This document shows positions 24,757 through 54,213 of a DNA stretch of 64,000 bases, in pieces. A program made the position numbers and the translations under genes. How positions within the stretch are numbered: the stretch's first letter is position 1; every line of letters starts with the position of its first letter. The stretch comes from Eledone cirrhosa (lineage: Eukaryota): assembly GCA_964016885.1 (NCBI GenBank), contig OZ024748.1:52638001-52702000 (forward strand), given 5' to 3'. The notes under the pieces were generated by a model. It did no database searches. It saw nothing but the letters and a program-made list of their open reading frames with translations, and was not told where the DNA came from.

Positions 24757-25189
24757 CTGTAGACATGATAAGACAACCAAAAGGAAACAGGAAGAGTCAG
24801 GCAGTAAACTAACCAAATTTGAACAACAACAACAACAACAGATACAACAGTCATAACAATAACAACTACTAGTACAATGGTCACAATACAACAACAGCAA
24901 CTACAATAGTACAAAACAACAACAACACCAACAGAACAAAACAACAAGAACAGCAATAACTCCAATAACAACAACTATAACTACAACAACTACAACTATA
25001 ACTACAACAACAACCACAACAGAACAAAACAACTACATGAACAGCAATAACTCCAACAACAACTATAACCACAACAACAACAACTATAACTACAACCACA
25101 GCAGAACAAAACAACAACAACAACCACAAGAGCAACAACAATGACAGCAAAACAATAAAAGCAAGATCTGCAATGAAGATTGCAGTGCA

Positions 25190-25880
25190 GTGCCGTGTGG
25201 TGTGTTGGTGTGTGGAGTGGTGTGGTGTGGTGTGGTGTGGTGGCATGTGGAGTGGTGTGGTGTGGTGTGGTGTGGTGGCATGTGGAGTGGTGAGGTGTGG
25301 AGTGGTGTGGTGGCGTGTGGTGGCATGTGGTGTGGTGTGGTGTGAAGTGGTGTGAAGTGGTGTGGTGGCGTGTGGTGTGGTGCAGTGGTGTGGGGAGTGG
25401 TGTGGTCGCGTGTGGTGTGGAGTGGTGTGGTGGCGTGTGGTGTGTTGGTGTGTGGAGTGGTGTGGTGTGGTGTGGTGTGGTGTGGTGTGGTGTGAAGTGG
25501 TGTGGTGGCGTGTGGTGTGGTGCAGTGGTGTGGGGAGTGGTGTGGTCGCGTGTGGTGTGGAGTGGTGTGGTGGTGTGTGGTGTGTTGGTGTGTGAAGTGG
25601 TGTGGAGTGGTGTGGTGTGGTGGCATGTGGTGTGTTGGTGTGTGGAGTGGTGTGGTGTGGTGGCATGTGGAGTGGTGTGTGGAGTGGTGGCGTGTGGTGT
25701 GGAGTGGTGTGGTGGCGTGTGGTGTGGTGGCGTGTTGAGTGGTGTGTGGTGTGGCGTGTGGTGTGGTGTGGTGCAGTGGTGTGGGGAGTGGTGTGGTCGC
25801 GTGTGGTGTGGAGTGGTGTGGTGGCGTGTGGAGTGGTCGCGTTTAGTGTGGAGTGGTGGCGTGTGGTGTGGTGGCGTGGG
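25190..25880. repeat. (GTGTG)n-based compound satellite
   Basis: Pentamer TGTGG/AGTGG/CGTGG array with higher-order blocks. Confidence 0.95.
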
Positions 25881-25929
25881 AGTTGAGACAGAATGATCTT
25901 AGCATTGACAACAAGTAATTGAAAGTCCA

Positions 25930-28622
25930 TGGCAGTGGTGGTGGTGGTGGTGGTGGTGGCAGTGGTGGCATTGGTGGTGGTGGTGGTGGTGGTGGCATTG
26001 GTGGTGGATGTGATGTGTGTTGGCGGTGGCAGTGGTGGTGGTGGTGGCAGTGGTGGCAGTGGTGGTGGTGGTGGTGGTGGTGGCATTGGTGGTGGATGTG
26101 ATGTGTGTTGGTGGTGGCAGTGGTGGTGTGCTATCTGTGGTGGTGGTGGTGGCAGTAGTGGTGTGCTATGTGTGGTGGTGGTGGCAGTAGTGGCATTGGT
26201 GGTGGATGTGATGTGTGTTGGTGGTGGCAGTGGTGGTGGTGATGGCAGTGGTGGCAGTGGTGGTGGTGGTGGTGGCAGTGGTGGTGGTGGCAGTGGTGGT
26301 GGCAGTAGTGGTGTGCTATGTGTGGTGGTGGTGGCAGTGGTGGTGGTGGCAGTGGTGGTGGCAGTAGTGGTGTGCTATGTGTGGTGGTGGTGGCAGTAGT
26401 GGTGTGCTATGTGTGGTGCTGGTGGTGGCAGTAGTTGTGTGCTATGTGCTGTGGTGGTGGTGGTGGCAGTAGTGGTGTGCTATGTGTGGTGGTGGTGGTG
26501 GCATTAGTGGTGTGCTATGTGTGGTGCTGGTGGTGGCAGTAGTTGTGTGCTATGTGCTGTGGTGGTGGTGGTGGCAGTAGTGGTGTGCTATGTGTGGTGG
26601 TGGTGGCAGTAGTGGTGTGCTATGTGTGGTGGTGGTGGTGGTGGCAGTAGTGGTGTGCTATGTGCTGTGGTGGTGGTGGTGGCAGTAGTGGTGTGCTATG
26701 TGTGGTGGTGGTGGCAGTAGTGGTGTGCTATGTGTGGTGGTGGTGGTGGCAGTAGTGGTGTGCTATTTGCTGTGGTGGTGGTGGTGGCAGTAGTGGTGTG
26801 CTATGTGTGGTGGTGGTGGTGGCAGTAGTGGTGTGCTATGTGTGGTGGTGGTGGTGGCAGTAGTGGTGTGCTATGTGCTGTGGTGGTGGTGGTGGCAGTA
26901 GTGGTGTGCTATGTGTGGTGGTGGTGGTGGTGGCAGTAGTGGTGTGCTATGTGTGGTGGTGGTGTGGCAGTAGTGGTGTGATATGTGCTGTGGTGGAGGT
27001 GGTGGCAGTAGTGGTGTGCTATGTGTGGTGGTGGTGGTGGTGGTGGCAGTAGTGGTGTGCTATGTGTGGTGGTGGTGGTGGCAGTAGTGGTGTGCTATGT
27101 GTGGTGGTGGTGGTGGTGGCAGTAGTGGTGTGCTATGTGTGGTGGTGGTGGTGGTGGCAGTAGTGGTGTGCTATGTGTGGTGGTGGTGGCAGTAGTGGTG
27201 TGCTATGTGTGGTGGTGGTGGTGGCAGTAGTGGTGTGCTATGTGCTGTGGTGGTGGTGGTGGCAGTAGTGGTGTGCTATGTGTGGTGGTGGTGGTGGCAG
27301 TAGTGGTGTGCTATGTGTGGTGGTGGTGGTGGCAGTAGTGGTGTGCTATGTGCTGTGGTGGTGGTGGTGGCAGTAGTGGTGTGCTATGTGTGGTGGTGGT
27401 GGTGGTGGCAGTAGTGGTGTGCTATGTGTGGTGGTGGTGTGGCAGTAGTGGTGTGATATGTGCTGTGGTGGAGGTGGTGGCAGTAGTGGTGTGCTATGTG
27501 TGGTGGTGGTGGTGGTGGTGGCAGTAGTGGTGTGCTATGTGTGGTGGTGGTGGTGGCAGTAGTGGTGTGCTATGTGTGGTGGTGGTGGTGGTGGCAGTAG
27601 TTATGTGTGGTGGTGGTGGTGGCAGTAGTGGTGTGCTATGTGTGGTGGTGGTGGTGGTGGCAGTAGTGGTGTGCTATGTGTGGTGGTGGTGGTGGTGGCA
27701 GTAGTGGTGTGCTATGTGTGGTGGTGGTGGTGGCAGTAGTGGTGTGCTATGTGTGGTGGTGGTGGTGGCAGTAGTGGTGTGCTATGTGCTGTGGTGGTGG
27801 TGGTGGCAGTAGTGGTGTGCTATGTGTGGTGGTGGTGGTGGTGGCAGTAGTGGTGTGCTATGTGTGGTGGTGGTGGTGGCAGTAGTGGTGTGCTATGTGT
27901 GGTGGTGGTGGTGGCAGTAGTGGTGTGCTATGTGCTGTGGTGGTGGTGGTGGCAGTAGTGGTGTGCTATGTGTGGTGGTGGTGGTGGTGGCAGTAGTGGT
28001 GTGCTATGTGTGGTGGTGGTGGTGGTGGTGGCAGTAGTGGTGTGCTATGTGTGGTGGTGGTGGTGGCAGTAGTGGTGTGCTATGTGTGGTGGTGGTGGTG
28101 GCAGTAGTGGTGTGCTATGTGCTGTGGTGGTGGTGGTGGCAGTAGTGGTGTGCTATGTGTGGTGGTGGTGGTGGTGGCAGTAGTGGTGTGCTATGTGTGG
28201 TGGTGGTGGTGGCAGTAGTGGTGTGCTATGTGTGGTGGTGGTGGTGGTGGCAGTAGTGGTGTGCTACATGTGGTGGTGGTGGTGGCAGTAGTGGTGTGCT
28301 ACATGTGGTGGTGGTGGTGGCAGTAGTGGTGTGCTACATGTGGTGGTGGTGTGGCAGTAGTGGTGTGCTACATGTGGTGGTGGTGGTGGCAGTAGTGGTG
28401 TGCTATCTGTGGTGGTGGTGGCAGTAGTGGTGTGCTATGTGTGGTGGTGGTGGCAGTAGTGGTGTGCTATCTGTGGTGGTGGTGGCAGTAGTGGTGTGCT
28501 ATGTGCTGTGGTGGTGGTGGTGGCAGTAGTGGTGTGCTATGTGCTGTGGTGGTGGTGGTGGTGGCAGTAGTGGTGTGCTACATGTGGTGGTGGTGGTGGC
28601 AGTAGTGGTGTGCTACATGTGG
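25930..28622. repeat. G/T-skewed minisatellite GGCAGTAGTGGTGTGCTATGTGT(GGT)n
   Basis: Dozens of units over about 2.3 kb with variable GGT number, preceded by a GGT/GGCAGT tract. Confidence 0.95.
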
Positions 28623-29040: not shown

Positions 29041-29089
<49 letters not shown>

Positions 29090-29119
29090 AGATCAAAAGA
29101 TGGTTAAATGAGTTCCATG

Positions 29120-29190
29120 TATTTTATTATGCGCATTTCAAAAACAAACATCATCATGCAATAATATTTGTGTTTTCATCAGATAAAATA
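29120..29190 (-). ncRNA. Type I hammerhead ribozyme (antisense arm of element A)
   Basis: Reverse complement TATTTTAT-CTGATGA-AAACACAAAT...GTTTTT-GAAA-TGCGCA-TA-ATAAAATA. Confidence 0.8.
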
Positions 29191-29307
29191 GGAAGACATG
29201 ATATGAAGGTTAAAAAACACTTGTGGATAGTGCAGTTTTAAATCAACATATGTTGATTTAAAACTGCACTATCCACAAGTGTGTTTAACCTTCATATCAT
29301 GTCTTCC

Positions 29308-29377
29308 TATTTTATCTGATGAAAACCAAATTTTATTGCATGATGATGTTTGTTTTTGAAATGCGCATAATAAAATA
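29308..29377 (+). ncRNA. Type I hammerhead ribozyme (sense arm of element A)
   Basis: Stem I TATTTTAT/ATAAAATA, CTGATGA 29316-29322, stem II AAAC../..GTTT, GAAA 29358-29361, palindromic ATGCGCAT, predicted AUA cleavage after 29369. Confidence 0.82.
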
Positions 29378-29527
29378 CATGGAACTCATTTAACCATCTT
29401 TTGATCTTATATATTATGTATACTCCAGTCCTACAAACTGTAGAGTCCTTCTTATCCGATATCTGCATTGCTTTATTGTACTTCAATAAAACTCACCTCC
29501 TACATATATATATATATATATATATAT

Positions 29528-29829
29528 TGAAGTTTCCGTTGAAAATTGAAAAAGTCATAGGAGTGAAGAGTGCTCTATGTAAGTTACAGAGCTAAATTTA
29601 ATGTATAATAAACAATAAAATATAATTACCTCATTACCAGAGGTTTCCCAAATAGATGTTTCCAGAAAAATCACCCAAGAAAGGCCTTTCTTGGGGAGAT
29701 TTTTCAAATATTTCACTATGTACTAAATTGCCTTGTCTGACGAACGAATGCGGACGTTTCTTTTATTCGTCTTAGTCGGGAAACCTCTGGTAATGAGGTA
29801 ATTATATTGTATTGTTTATTATACATTAT
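29528..29829 (-). mobile_element. Hammerhead element, family B, with about 50-bp inverted arms
   Basis: Arms 29599-29649 / 29778-29829; plus-strand AATTGCCTTGT-CTGACGA...GAAAC-CTCTG-GTA-ATGAGGTAATT (29726-29803; stem II imperfect); tail on minus strand TAGCTCTGT...AGAGCAC. Confidence 0.7.
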
Positions 29830-29840
29830 ATATATATATA

Positions 29841-30143
29841 GGAAGTATTTCCATAGGAAAGGTAAAGGAAAAGAGAGTGCTCTATGTAGGCTACAGAGCT
29901 TTTTAGTTATGTAATAAACAATACGAGATAATTATTTCATTTACCAATGGTTTCTTGAAGACATATTTATATCTGTCTCCAGTCGTCAGAACGAATAAAT
30001 AATGTGGTGTGTTTATCAAATCCATATTTAATAAACACCTTGTTATTTATTCGTTCTGACGACTGAAGGAAGATATAAATATGTGTCTTCAAGAAACCAC
30101 TGGTAAACGAAATAATTATCCCATGTTGTTTATTACATAACTA
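29841..30143 (-). mobile_element. Palindromic hammerhead element, family C (related to B)
   Basis: About 115-bp arms 29905-30143; hammerhead on + (TTCGTT-CTGACGA...GAAAC-CACTG-GTA-AACGAA, 30050-30111) and on - (29936-29995); tail shares GAGTGCTCTATGTA..TACAGAGCT with B. Confidence 0.8.
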
Positions 30144-30719: not shown

Positions 30720-30764
30720 AACGATGTACTAGTTTCAAGCTTGTTAGCTATCATCAGCACCGTT
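30720..30764 (-). ncRNA. Minimal type I hammerhead ribozyme (45 nt)
   Basis: Reverse complement AACGGTG-CTGATGA-TAGCT(AACA)AGCTT-GAAAC-TA-GTA-CATCGTT; 7-bp stem I, palindromic ACTAGT stem III, GUA site. Confidence 0.85.
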
Positions 30765-31573: not shown

Positions 31574-32739
31574 ATGTGTGTGTTTCTGTCTTTAATTCCT
31601 TCTCCATGGTAATGTTCTATGACATTCTTCAAGTCTAACAATGACAGTGTTGGTGGTGCTGGGCTGTCTTGTAATTTAATTAACTTTCTCCATTGTTTAT
31701 TCTAGATTTATCATTACATTTTATTCTTCCATATTTATATATTTATTCATTTTCACCAATCTCTTTTACGTTTGTTTCTACTTTTTTTGTGTTGTTTTGT
31801 TTATATTTTATTTTTGCTTTTTTTTATTTTTATATTATTTTTTTTTTGTTTTGTTTTGATTTTTTTCATATTTTATTTTTGTTGTTTTGTTTTGATTTTT
31901 TTATATTTTATTTTTGTTTTTGTATTGTTTTGACTTTTGTCTTTGTATTGGTGTTTTGTTTTTTCATATTTTGTTTCGAATTTTTTATATTTTACTTGTG
32001 TTCTTGTTTTTTGTTTTTGTTGTTCTCGTGTTTTGATTTTGTGGTATTTTACTTTTGCATCTTGTTAATTATAAATTTTCTTTTTTTTGTTTCTTGTGAA
32101 GAGAATATGGGGTGGGGGGCTACTTTATTTTATGTCCAACTCCAGTTCTTTTATTTTGTTTGCAATTTATTCTTCTTCTCCTTAACAAATAACTTGATTA
32201 GGTTCTACTCGCACACTGACACATACAGAGACATGCACACACATAGACACAGACACACACAGGCATACACACACACACACACACACACACAATTTCAAAC
32301 ATGTTGAACAAGAGATGTTAGACAGATGGATAGAGAAATTCTAAGACAAGGTCAACACCATAAATAACAAGTGGAAATACTAGGATAAAGGGTAGGGTAT
32401 GAGGTAGGGTGGGGTAAGAGTGAGGGGTAGGGTGGGGTGAGAGTGTGAGGTAGGGTGGAGGAGAGTGGGGGTTAGGATGTGGGAGGGGAGGCAGAGTGGG
32501 GCATGTGGTAAGGAGGAGAAGAGAGGGGTTAATAATAGTATGGGAGGGGGAGGGAGGAGAAATAGGAAATAATTATTTCCTTTATTGTTTCTTTCTTTGA
32601 GGTCTATATAGCAAATCCCAATTGATTAATAAAGTTAGGTAGAGTTATATGACTATATGGGGGGGAGGTATAGGGGGATAGGGTGAGGAGGGATACCTAC
32701 TTTTAATGAGAAGGTGAATGTTGATAGAGAACATGAATA

Positions 32740-33310
32740 TAGCAGTGGGAAGGCTGTGGGGAGGCAGTGGTGAGGAAGTTGTGAGGCAGTGGGGAGGCTG
32801 TGGGGAGGCTATGGGAAGGCAGTGGTAAGGCAGTGGTAAGGAAGTTGTGAGGCAGTGGGGAGGCTGTGGGGAGGCTGTCAGAAGGCAGTGGTAAGGAAGT
32901 TGTGAGGCAGTGGGGAGGCTGTGGGGAGGCTGTGGGGAGGCTGTGGGAAGGCAGTGGTAAGGAAGTTGTGAGGCAGTGGGGAGGGTGTGGTGAGGAAGTT
33001 GTGAGTCAGTGGGGAGGCTGTCGTAAGGGAGCAGTGAGGAAGTTGTGAGGCAGTGGGGAGGGTGTGGGGAGGCTGTGAGAAGGTTGTGGGAAGGCAGCAG
33101 TGAGGCAGTGGGAAGGCTGTGGTGAGGAAGTTGTGAGGCAGTGGGGAGGCTGTCGTAAGGCAGCAGTGAGGAAGTGGTGAAGCAGTGGTGAGGAAGTTCT
33201 GAGGCTGTGGGAAGGTTGTGGGAAGGCAGCAGTGAGGCAGTGGGAAGGCTGTGGGAAGGCTGTGGTGAGGAAATTGTGAGGCAGTGGGGAGGAAGTTGTG
33301 AGGCTGTGGA
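32740..33310. repeat. G-rich minisatellite (GAGGCAGTGGGGAGGCTGTGG / GAGGAAGTTGT)
   Basis: About 11-bp subunits in variable order. Confidence 0.9.
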
Positions 33311-33711
33311 GTGTCTACAGGTACAGAAGAAATCAGGAGGCAAAGGGACAATAATGAATGAATGGAGAGAGAGAGGGGAAGAAAAAGAGGGAGTGAGAGA
33401 CCTATGAAGACTAGTGTTTGTAAAGAAATCTACTGGTATGTGTGTGTGTGTATGTGTGAGAATGTGTGTGTGTGTACAGGAACTCACATATATAGACACA
33501 CACAATTCAAGAGAACAAGCCGTAGTACATGTTGAGTAGGGAAAGACAAGTGTGCTTTAAGAGTGACAAAATAAATGACAGGTGCAACAGTAACAACAAC
33601 AGTAACAACAACAATAACTGTTTCTATGTTAGGCACAAGGCCAGCATTAATCCAGTACATTACTGGTACTTTATTTTATCGACCACGTAAGGATGAAAGG
33701 CAAAGTTAACC

Positions 33712-34795
33712 TATAACAACAGTAGCAACTACAACAGTAACAACAACAACTACAGTAACAACAACAACTACAGTAACAACAGCAACTACAGTAACAACAA
33801 CAACAGTAACAACAGCAACTACAGTAACAACAACAACAGTAACAACTACAACAGTAACAACAATAACGGATAAAAGAGAAAACCATGCAATACTATGGTT
33901 AGTTAAGATGATGATAATGACAACAACAACAACTACAACAGCTACAGTAACAACAACAACAACAGCTACAGTAACAACAACAACAACAGCTACAACAACA
34001 ACAACAACAGCTACAGTAACAACAACAACAACAGCTACAACAACAACAATAACAGCTACAGTAACAACAACAACAGCTACAACACCAACAACAGCTACAG
34101 TAACAACAACAACAGCAGCTACAACAACAACAACAACAGCTACAACAACACCAACAACAGCTACAGTAACAACAACAACAACAGCTACAACAACAACAAT
34201 AACAGCTACAGTAACAACAACAACAACAGCTACAACAACACCAACAACAGCTACAGTAACAACAACAACAGCTACAGTAACAACAACAACAACAGCTACA
34301 ACAACAACAACAACAGCTACAGCAACAACAACAACAACAGCTACAGCAACAACAATAACAGCTACAGTAACAACAACAACAACAGCTACAACAACACCAA
34401 CAACAGCTACAGTAACAACAACAACAACAGCTACAACTACAACAACAACAGCTACAGTAACAACAACAACAACAGCTACAACAACACCAACAACAGCTAC
34501 AGTAACAACAACAACAACAGCTACAACAACAACAACAGCTACAACTACAACAACAACAGCTACAGTAACAACAACAACAACATCTACAACAACAACAACA
34601 ACAATAACAACAACAGCTACAACAACAACAATAACAACAACAGCTACAACAACAACAACAACTACTACAACAACAACAACAACAACAGTTACAACAACAA
34701 CAACAGCTACAACAACAACAACAACAACAACAACAGCTACAACAACAACAACAACAACAGCAGCTACAACAACAACAACAACAACAACAACAATT
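33712..34795. repeat. (CAA)n compound repeat with CAGCTACAGTAA interruptions
   Basis: Explains the poly-Thr and poly-Cys ORFs. Confidence 0.95.
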
Positions 34796-44284: not shown

Positions 44285-44294
<10 letters not shown>

Positions 44295-44472
44295 AGATCA
44301 AAAGATAGTTAAGTATTTTATTATGCGCATTTCAAAAACAAATATCATCATGGGATGATATCTGCGTTCTCATCAGATAAAATAGGGAGACATGATATGA
44401 AGCTTAAAAAACACTTGTGAATAGTGAAGTTTTAAATAAATTGCTTTATTGTGCTACAGTAAAACTCACCTC
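44285..44472. mobile_element. Family A hammerhead element, collapsed to one arm plus the end of the tail
   Basis: Left arm (TATTTTATTATGCGCATTTC...TCATCAGATAAAATA) joined directly to TTGCTTTATTGTGCTACAGTAAAACTCACCTC. Confidence 0.8.
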
Positions 44473-46979: not shown

Positions 46980-47224
46980 AAATGTTGGTGACTGTTATAG
47001 TTAATTGTTTCTACTTTTGGCACAAGGCCAGCAAATACCTAGTGCATTACTGGTACTTTATTTTATTGACCCCATAAGGAACAAAGGCAAAGTTAACCTC
47101 AACGGGATTTGCTTTGCCTTTCATCCTTACGGGATCGATAAAATAAAGTACCAGTAATGCAGTGAGTAATTGCTGGCCTTGTGCCAAAAGTAGAAACAAT
47201 TAACTATAACAGCCACCAACATTT
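46980..47224. repeat. Inverted duplication of a SINE family 2 3' half plus flank
   Basis: About 113-bp arms with an about 18-bp spacer; the arms include non-SINE AAATGTTGGTGACTGTTATAG. Confidence 0.9.
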
Positions 47225-53080: not shown

Positions 53081-53100
53081 ATATATATATATATATATAA

Positions 53101-53535
53101 TATATAATATATAAGATTAAAAGATGGTTAAAAGAGCTCCATGTATTTTATTATGCCCATTTCTAAAACAAATATCATCATGCAATAACATTTGCATTTT
53201 CGTCAGATAAAATAGGGAGACATGATATGAAGTTTAAAACACACTTGTGAATAGTGCAGTTTTAAATCAACATATATATGATATGTTGATTTAAAACTGC
53301 ACTATTCACAAGTGTGTTTTAACCTTCATATCATGTCTCCCTATTTTATCTGACGAAAACACAAATGTTATTGCATGATGATATTTGTTTTTGAAATGTG
53401 CATAATAAAATACATGGAACTCTTTTAACCATCTTTTGATCTTATATATTATTTATACTCCAGTCCTACAAACTGTAGAGTGCTACTTATCCGATATCTG
53501 CATTGCTTTATTGTACTACAATAAAACTCACCTCC

Positions 53536-53538
<3 letters not shown>
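53101..53538 (+). mobile_element. Palindromic hammerhead element, family A, second full copy
   Basis: Same arms, centre and tail as 29081-29504; plus-strand hammerhead 53342-53412 (CTGACGA...GAAA-TGTGCA-TA). Confidence 0.85.
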
Positions 53539-53574
<36 letters not shown>

Positions 53575-53581
<7 letters not shown>

Positions 53582-53958
53582 TTCAAAATATTAATAAATA
53601 TAGACATTCATGTGATCAAATATATTTTATTATATATATTTCAGAGGTACTGTGCTGTTTCCTCAGTACGTCCTCATCAGATAAAATAAATTGAAGTGTT
53701 ACATACCTCAACTATGCTCAGCACAGTTGAGGTATGTCAGACATCAATTTATTTTACTGCTGAGGACGTACTGAGGAAACAGCACATATCTCTGAAATAT
53801 ATATAATAAAATATATATTTTGATTATGCAAATATTTTTCATTTTTAACATTTTGAATAATATTAAAAACTCCAGGAAAACTTCACAGTTGAGTGCTTCT
53901 AATCTATTGTTAAATTGCATTCGTTGAGTAATCAACAAACCATACTAATCTTTGGTCA
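53575..53958 (+). mobile_element. Palindromic hammerhead element, family G
   Basis: Arms about 53575-53865; intact hammerhead on - (53623-53688: TATTTTAT-CTGATGA-GGACGTACTG..CAGTACCTCT-GAAA-TATATA-TA-ATAAAATA); the + arm core is mutated to CTGCTGA; tail AACTCCAG...GAGTGC. Confidence 0.8.
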
Positions 53959-53974
53959 TATATATATATATAGG

Positions 53975-54173
53975 TATATAATATTTAATATAGAAATGGC
54001 TTTTACAGGACTAGAACTGTTTCTTTCAAAGGAAATAATCAAGGGCTTTCCTGATGATTTCTTTTGAATGAAACAGTTCTAGTCCTGTAAAAGCTATTTC
54101 TATATTAAATATTGTATATACTCTACTATGTATTGAGTACCTTATTTACTGTGGCTATCCCCGATTAAACCCA

Positions 54174-54176
<3 letters not shown>
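53975..54176 (+). mobile_element. Palindromic hammerhead element, family H
   Basis: About 68-bp arms 53975-54120; CTGATGA 54051-54057, GAAAC 54070-54074, GTC 54082-54084; 5' strand of stem I partly deleted; tail TACTC...GAGTAC. Confidence 0.7.

Positions 54177-54213
<37 letters not shown>

Follow-up and report, generated by a model that had tools for sequence, protein, structure and literature searches.

In the genome of Eledone cirrhosa, the family A palindromes are read here as insertions of the pseudo-LTR (pLTR) of a Penelope-like element (PLE), in which both strands of a cut (TA)n tract would have started reverse transcription from two internal positions of what was probably a single sense RNA, and the two cDNAs would have run to its likely capped 5' end and been joined head to head. 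This reading, drawn from the arrangement of the sequences, is likely on balance. The analysis started from a window of 64,000 nucleotides (contig OZ024748.1 of assembly GCA_964016885.1, positions 52,638,001 to 52,702,000, forward strand), in which a sequence-only reading had noted that the two arms of each family A palindrome share alleles and turn at a common point, and had proposed either fold-back synthesis at each insertion or homogenisation of the arms by conversion. The observation as a whole is confirmed in part, and its interpretation is partly supported.

Two copies of the window, at 29081 and 53105 (the latter placed at 53101 by the sequence-only reading), show the same layout: (TA)n, an inverted arm of ~170 nt, a direct arm, a tail of ~85 nt and (TA)n. 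Their palindromes span 29081-29416 and 53105-53451 in the sequence alignment, and the family A unit is asymmetric, with the ~85-nt tail on the right arm and absent from the left arm. In the 53105 copy, the left (TA)n target tract, read from the sequence, occupies 53081..53104 and is followed by the inverted arm (53105..53275, minus strand, by alignment), which contains the pLTR from +1 to ~+172 without the tail and would be the cDNA primed by the top target strand. The junction (53276..53280) contains four inserted bases, ATAT, and a non-genomic, cap-like G immediately 5' of the direct-arm +1; the extra TA-rich bases that had been noted here are thus present as ATAT, and the G is a correction to that description. 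The direct arm (53281..53451, plus strand) also contains the pLTR from +1 to ~+172, +1 being the putative transcription start. At its end, a TA-rich sequence (53450..53457, plus strand) is the putative inner priming site, the point at which most copies have the inverted arm joined to (TA)n. Loose ends at 53457 were found in 44 and 47 contigs in two runs on contigs of unrecorded kind from one sample, which are possibly the assembly's own source and so give no independent support. The tail (~85 nt, 53452..53539, plus strand) is located between the inner and outer priming sites, runs on into the ORF leader in full-length copies, and is followed here by the right (TA)n target tract (53540..53578, from the sequence). 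The second copy shows an inverted arm at 29081..29251 (minus strand) and a direct arm plus tail at 29248..29504 (plus strand), and its arms overlap on ATAT, forming a loop-less palindrome. The claim that both copies invert at the same element position holds, with +1 at 29248 and 53281. A third, older copy (44290..44472) has an inverted arm (44290-44440) joined to just the last ~35 nt of the tail, and its arms do not overlap.

Other palindromes and repeats are found near these copies. A second hammerhead palindrome family is present at 53575-53950, right after the (TA)n of the 53105 copy, with its motif on the minus strand (53623-53688) and its own one-sided tail, and a short palindrome with a tail at 53975-54190 turns inside a hammerhead-like motif. 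Beside the 29081 copy there are two related hammerhead palindromes of a third family (29593-29834 and 29904-30143), with tails on the left, so that elements stack in the same (TA)n tracts. The palindrome at 46980-47224 belongs to another family, in which the descriptor finds no hammerhead, and the same family interrupts a family A arm in locus L138. An isolated compact type I hammerhead motif is located on the minus strand at 30720-30764. Minisatellite arrays, with periods of 5-15, 35-38, 11 and 3-12 nt, occupy 25100-28000 and 32600-34300, and the repeat search of the window was dominated by microsatellites.

By descriptor scan, each arm of the 53105 and 29081 copies has a type I hammerhead motif, at 53144..53214 (minus strand) and 53342..53412 (plus strand) in the former and at 29120-29190 and 29308-29377 in the inverted and direct arms of the latter. 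The CUGANGA / GAAA / NUH core is present with three stems, and the 53342..53412 motif shows an 8-bp stem I, CUGACGA, stem II, GAAA and a short palindromic stem III, with a predicted cut after 53404. Such a short palindromic stem III is typical of PLE hammerheads according to the accessible text of PMC4209133. The core is variable at 0.6% of sites, versus 2.9% in stem I and 4.6-7.1% in other arm regions, and self-cleavage of the family A hammerhead is predicted. No hammerhead was found among the Rfam matches listed (150 of 291), which were just matches to miRNA models, all below gathering scores, and the MFE fold of the hammerhead region was not significant.

The family A unit is almost certainly the pLTR (type I hammerhead plus ~85-nt tail) of a Hydra-clade PLE, judging from its place in a longer element. 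In the 3.0 Gb of genome searched, the tail-end motif has 14,464 occurrences, almost always in (TA)n, and a control motif has 0; family A thus has at least 14,464 copies. The direct arm extends upstream into a common longer element in eight of 30 loci, where it ends an ORF (tail-only search), and pLTR and tail also precede the ORF start, with locus L178 beginning exactly at +1. Since the unit is found both at the 3' end of the ORF and ahead of its start, it is identified as a pseudo-LTR. The element measures ~3.9 kb and encodes an RT-endonuclease; family A provides both its 3' end and its 5' leader, and pLTRs at both ends of the ORF form a partial tandem, as in EN+ Penelope-like elements. A 728-aa frame of one copy, P0001, shows DKT, a YRDD RT motif, a CxCX5C linker and an IYEC..YFG endonuclease start, and C-terminal CxxC and CxH (CNLC, CLH) are seen in other copies. 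The EN+/Hydra assignment was made by eye, from motifs compared with the available definition in PMC8557442 (DKT, CxCX5C linker, CCHH absent, CxxC plus CxH, (TA)n insertion) and with published Hydra-set proteins. Of these traits the family shows SDKT, CNCP....C, CNLC and CLH, and CCHH is absent, with a single Cys between the GIY and YIG equivalents. The N-terminal RWK position reads RLRWI in P0001 and RWR or RWE in relatives. A homolog search gave four proteins, 31-42% identical, and Pfam gave no match on the frames of the element or on the four relatives. P0001 aligns by eye with the motifs of Hydra-1_Obim and the hammerhead differs, which makes the family distinct from Hydra-1_Obim; the element family appears new, within a known clade. 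A MITE or foldback DNA transposon was ruled out by the asymmetric tail, the graded 5' truncation and the linked RT ORF.

Several further features of the element were seen. An Asn-rich stretch between RT and endonuclease (P0001 residues ~570-650) recalls the N-rich inserts of rotifer Penelope elements described in the accessible part of PMC3846280. The inverted arms of L183 and L191 cover the whole unit (~3.5 kb) into the upstream pLTR, and the inverted arm of L183 holds the 728-aa open frame; a second, diverged Hydra-like ORF family is found ~4 kb from the family A insertion in L183, in frames near the far end of that stretch. A tandem array of internal ORF fragments of the element, with a period of ~1.7 kb, occupies G000:C2:47112088-47124160 (L168-L173).

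Arm ends were studied in 90 loci taken from 100 listed tail-motif matches on contig C1 (the first 30, then 60), leaving out three matches within ~2 kb of another and the last seven; 20 of the 90 were extended further. The ends were coded by hand from BLAST maps, with coordinates that are rough in the repetitive 3' UTR. At the 3' end, 87 of the 90 loci enter TA/CA repeats, two continue into the ORF leader and one shows another sequence; a target-site duplication was not discernible within (TA)n. Five loci were dropped, L082 and L100 (which run into the ORF), L099 (cut off), L114 (a local duplicate) and L131 (unmappable), leaving 85, of which 74 carry an inverted arm, mostly ending near +175 and with a one-sided tail; these 74 are the denominator of the arm-end counts.

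On the strand that begins in the (TA)n next to it, each arm is complementary to the RNA, which is the polarity of two target-primed cDNAs. The outer ends are fixed, at ~+172 for the inverted arm and ~+256 for the direct arm, and the inner ends accumulate at +1, where they carry an extra base. Of 38 parsed loci, 27 have an inverted arm that departs from the template at the TA-rich site, in phase with (TA)n, which suggests priming by microhomology. The arms do not overlap in 14 of the 74 loci, where the direct arm starts beyond +175, 3' of the outer end of the inverted arm. The inverted arm reaches further 5' in 43 loci and the direct arm in nine (two of them by >1.5 kb), so that the inverted arm reaches as far or further in 65. 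Fold-back on a single cDNA requires one arm to lie inside the other, and it is contradicted in its simple form by the tail, which is usually on the direct arm only, by the 14 loci with non-overlapping arms and by the nine with a further-reaching direct arm. As a general route, the proposed fold-back or hairpin-primed synthesis is not supported: neither arm is a subset of the other, ~900 palindromes are loop-less, and in at least 101 loci an extra base is present on each of the two arms. Some of the loci could still owe their origin to snap-back. That the family A palindromes consist of two target-primed cDNAs is very probable, given this geometry. Concerning the number of templates, the end classes are +1/+1 in 21 loci and upstream/upstream in 19, with 0 and 0 in the mixed classes (Fisher p 8e-12). 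Direct-arm ends fall at +155-230 in 20 of 74 loci, compared with 4 of 74 in the corresponding initial part of the inverted arm (p 6e-4), and four of 19 long arm pairs end within 45 nt of each other (p 0.002, with a threshold chosen after seeing the data). The lack of mixed classes, the 43:9 asymmetry, the end cluster at +155-230 and the near-coincident long ends suggest one template, and a single RNA read for both arms has about an even chance of being correct.

The turn position is the 5' end of the element (+1). As a shared fold-back point it is preferred rather than universal: 21 of the 74 loci have both arms ending at +1, the inverted arm ends there in 29 and the direct arm in 24, and the remaining ends are found anywhere up to 3.8 kb upstream or inside the pLTR. 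In the genome as a whole, 6,363 arms continue past +1 into the 3' UTR that lies upstream, and +1 is therefore no intrinsic stop; what had been called a sequence-defined turn point is better read as the 5' end of an RNA. Past +1, the cDNA strand shows C in 2,602 matches versus A or T in 2,855 (48%, with ~20% expected from composition), and in the direct arms that read through (23 of 23) the genomic base 5' of +1 is C, which would give G on the cDNA strand. The extra base is present on both arms, within 3 nt, in at least 101 loci, and among the 50 loci listed the spacer between the two extra bases is AT in 32 and absent in two; AT is the spacer that two cDNAs would leave if each finished with C and a single added A. 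The loop-less junction has 1,791 matches, corresponding to ~900 loci that are perfect palindromes. Part of the extra C's could stem from microhomology with the direct arm (L071, L127, L128). The +1 site resembles an initiator. An internal promoter is described in the pLTR of Penelope (PMC2377424, available text), and an extra G marks capped full-length L1 ends (PMC11702581, available text). Taken together, +1 is with good probability the start of a capped RNA, the extra base resembling the copy of an mRNA cap. No AG precedes +1, which rules out a splice acceptor there. Hammerhead cleavage was rejected as the origin of the fixed end, the cut being predicted at ~+123 and not at +1; ends do not pile up at the cut site (226 pattern matches, versus 269 at a control site, mostly point mutants). 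A non-LTR retrozyme, with tandem units bounded by hammerhead cleavage, was likewise rejected, since the ends pile up at +1.

The co-variation of the arms was analysed in 70 loci: 40 with at least 60 nt of overlap, 29 picked by similarity and L139, a set which includes L114 and the probable duplicates L015 and L019. The five alleles named by the sequence-only reading do occur on both arms of each copy; they are not private to the copy, being subfamily alleles that occur in many loci. One of them, CTGACGA, is found in seven of the 29 similarity-picked direct arms and in one of 90 unbiased direct arms. Discordance in the genome sample amounts to 1/57, 2/24, 2/44, 0/57 and 1/33 loci at the five sites. 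The arms differ at 2 of 166 sites in the 29081 copy and at 8 of 177 in the 53101 copy, whose right arm differs from each arm of the 29081 copy at 8 of 170 sites, as many as from its own left arm. Across the 70 loci, 1913 polymorphic sites are concordant between arms versus 51 discordant, and random pairing gives 28% discordant. The mean distance is 0.020 within a locus versus 0.075 between loci for any side combination (40 loci, overlap of at least 60 nt), and 0 of 300 permutations gave a within-locus distance as low. In a tree of 108 arms, a check which had been proposed from the sequence, the arms do not group by side (36 changes, versus a shuffled mean of 32). The nearest neighbour of an arm is its partner in just 25 of 40 loci, 15 of them ties, because subfamily siblings are near-identical. 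Six of the 70 loci have 3-5 discordant sites, and L007, L008 and L021 look chimeric; such discordance points to two RNAs or to later ectopic conversion, and some of the six are probably true chimeras. Nineteen parsed +1/+1 loci show 13 junction types, a diversity which indicates that junctions are formed anew. The proposal that each insertion copies its two arms from a common template is upheld by the allele concordance, by the class concordance (21/0/0/19) and by these 13 junction types.

The two alternatives that would place the agreement between arms in common descent or in later repair are both extremely improbable. In the former, whole units would be copied from palindromic masters, and centre and alleles would be common by descent. 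L119 and L139, the remaining two of the 21 +1/+1 loci, fit this, as they show an identical 50-nt templated junction and three common arm-specific differences between unrelated flanks, one of them with a tail on both arms, and whole palindromes thus appear to be sometimes re-copied. The 13 junction types speak against it as the rule, and just three of 2,415 locus pairs have three or more arm differences in common: L119/L139, L113/L114, which is a local duplication, and L015/L019, which probably is likewise. In the latter, gene conversion or hairpin repair would homogenise the arms after insertion, as had been proposed; four locus-private alleles are on both arms, and the divergence of arms and tail is not significantly correlated (rho 0.21, p 0.18, n=40), which also suits this alternative. 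It can be no more than a minor process, as 41 private alleles are on a single arm, the arms have 0.0043 and 0.0030 private alleles per site versus 0.0037 in the unpaired tail, and the alleles common to both arms are subfamily alleles. Self-priming on an antisense template, which is the published reading of junction palindromes in the accessible part of PMC3846280, is very improbable for family A: it accounts for the head-to-head polarity, and palindromic loci are transcribable both ways, but it does not explain why both arms carry a cap-like base at the sense 5' end, why the arms fail to overlap in 14/74 or why there are two fixed outer ends.

The remaining alternatives retain target priming. 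In a hybrid snap-back, the inverted-arm cDNA would reach the RNA end, fold and copy itself as the overlapping direct arm, and the second primer would give the tail only. This explains the allele identity, the class concordance and the inverted arms that reach as far or further in 65/74, some junctions show microhomology to the end of the inverted arm, and a partial snap-back is also compatible with the 43:9 asymmetry. It is improbable nonetheless, because it cannot yield the nine further-reaching direct arms, the ~900 loop-less palindromes, or the pairs of arms that both end in the extra base, separated by 0-2 nt. Twin priming on two separate RNAs, brought together by a protein dimer and mostly derived from one source locus, is unlikely, though the least so of these alternatives: it works without strand displacement, a PLE dimer is predicted (PMC11167929, available text), 3-6 of 70 loci look chimeric, all junction data are equally compatible with it, and one dominant source would also yield class concordance. 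Against it, 0 of 40 loci are mixed +1/upstream though the same haplotypes occur in both classes, several subfamilies with near-identical arms coexist and chimeras are still rare, and the 43:9 asymmetry together with the stalling near the other primer suggests interference on one molecule.

In the favoured reading, double priming on one sense RNA, the endonuclease of the element would cut both strands of (TA)n; one target 3' end would prime at +256 and the other would pair with the TA-rich sequence at +172-180. Short cDNAs that run off at +1, with the cap copied as C and an A often added, would come from priming in the 5' pLTR of the mRNA or on a transcript of a solo pLTR, and priming in the 3' pLTR would give long, randomly truncated arms. 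The upstream cDNA would usually extend further, and the downstream cDNA would often stall near the other primer. The two cDNA 3' ends may then be joined through annealing of the self-complementary ATAT, through microhomology or with short insertions. The arms would co-vary because the template is common to both, and the turn position would be common to the copies because it is the end of the RNA; reading one RNA twice would require strand displacement by the PLE RT. A wider proposal is that PLE integration relies on a programmed double priming of one capped mRNA, with a built-in TA-rich site capturing the second target strand and the two cDNAs copying one RNA stretch as far as the cap, from which the inverted pLTR, the tail and thousands of mini-palindromes (as 5'-pLTR strong-stop products) would follow, in place of antisense self-priming; this is possible, with doubt somewhat outweighing belief.

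The origin of tandem and inverted PLE structures is named as unresolved in the available text of PMC8557442, and the later steps of the PLE cycle as yet to be validated in that of PMC11167929. If both cut ends copy the same RNA, a long-puzzling feature of the PLE class would be explained. The family offers more than 14,000 natural insertion products with readable ends, in which three features distinguish between the published and rival models and give exact predictions for an existing in vitro system: the cap-like base carried by the two arms, the strict concordance of end classes and the arms that do not overlap. Palindromes of this kind would be retroelement products, and not MITEs or miRNA hairpins, and the divergence between arms can date each insertion, as LTR pairs do. 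A literature search limited to papers outside subscription found none that proposes twin priming or a cap signature for PLEs.

The following comparisons refer to the accessible text of each source. The inverted-pLTR structure itself is already published. The EN+ PLEs Pen2a_Av (PMC3846280) and PAc (PMC11167929) share with family A the inverted pLTR and tail, with a head-to-head inverted pLTR without tail, a palindromic junction and two internal initiation sites; their published reading is antisense self-priming, whereas the junctions of family A point to two cDNAs on a sense, capped RNA. In vitro, the Anolis PLE cuts and extends both strands, uses two internal start sites and uncleaved RNA, and is predicted to form a dimer (PMC11167929), and the two-cDNA model agrees with this work and conflicts with antisense self-priming (PMC3846280). 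The Hydra-clade PLEs Hydra-1_Obim and Penelope-13_HM (PMC8557442) show, like family A, a C-terminal endonuclease, DKT, CxCX5C, no CCHH, CxxC plus CxH, a sense hammerhead near the 3' end and a (TA)n target; the entry for Penelope-13_HM includes an inverted copy with 5' truncation, as in family A. Hydra-1_Obim, unlike family A, has an entry reading 'no pLTR' and a different hammerhead (PMC8557442). Compared with the Hydra clade of the same source, family A has a ~3.9 kb unit with a ~1.2-kb 3' UTR, versus <3 kb, a tail of ~85 nt versus the usual 30-40, RWI in place of RWK, and at least 14,464 copies. Non-LTR retrozymes (bioRxiv 10.64898/2026.07.22.740005) are, like family A, short non-coding derivatives of PLE pLTRs with a type I hammerhead, but family A forms no tandem arrays and its ends are set by +1 and the priming sites, not by ribozyme cleavage. 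Twin priming of L1 (PMC11702581) resembles family A in that the second target strand primes internally by microhomology, and in the 5' inversion, the end joining and the extra G at the ends of full-length copies; the two cDNAs of L1 have hardly any overlap and their second site is variable, whereas in family A the site is fixed, its use is nearly obligatory (74/85) and the cDNAs often lie on the same RNA stretch.
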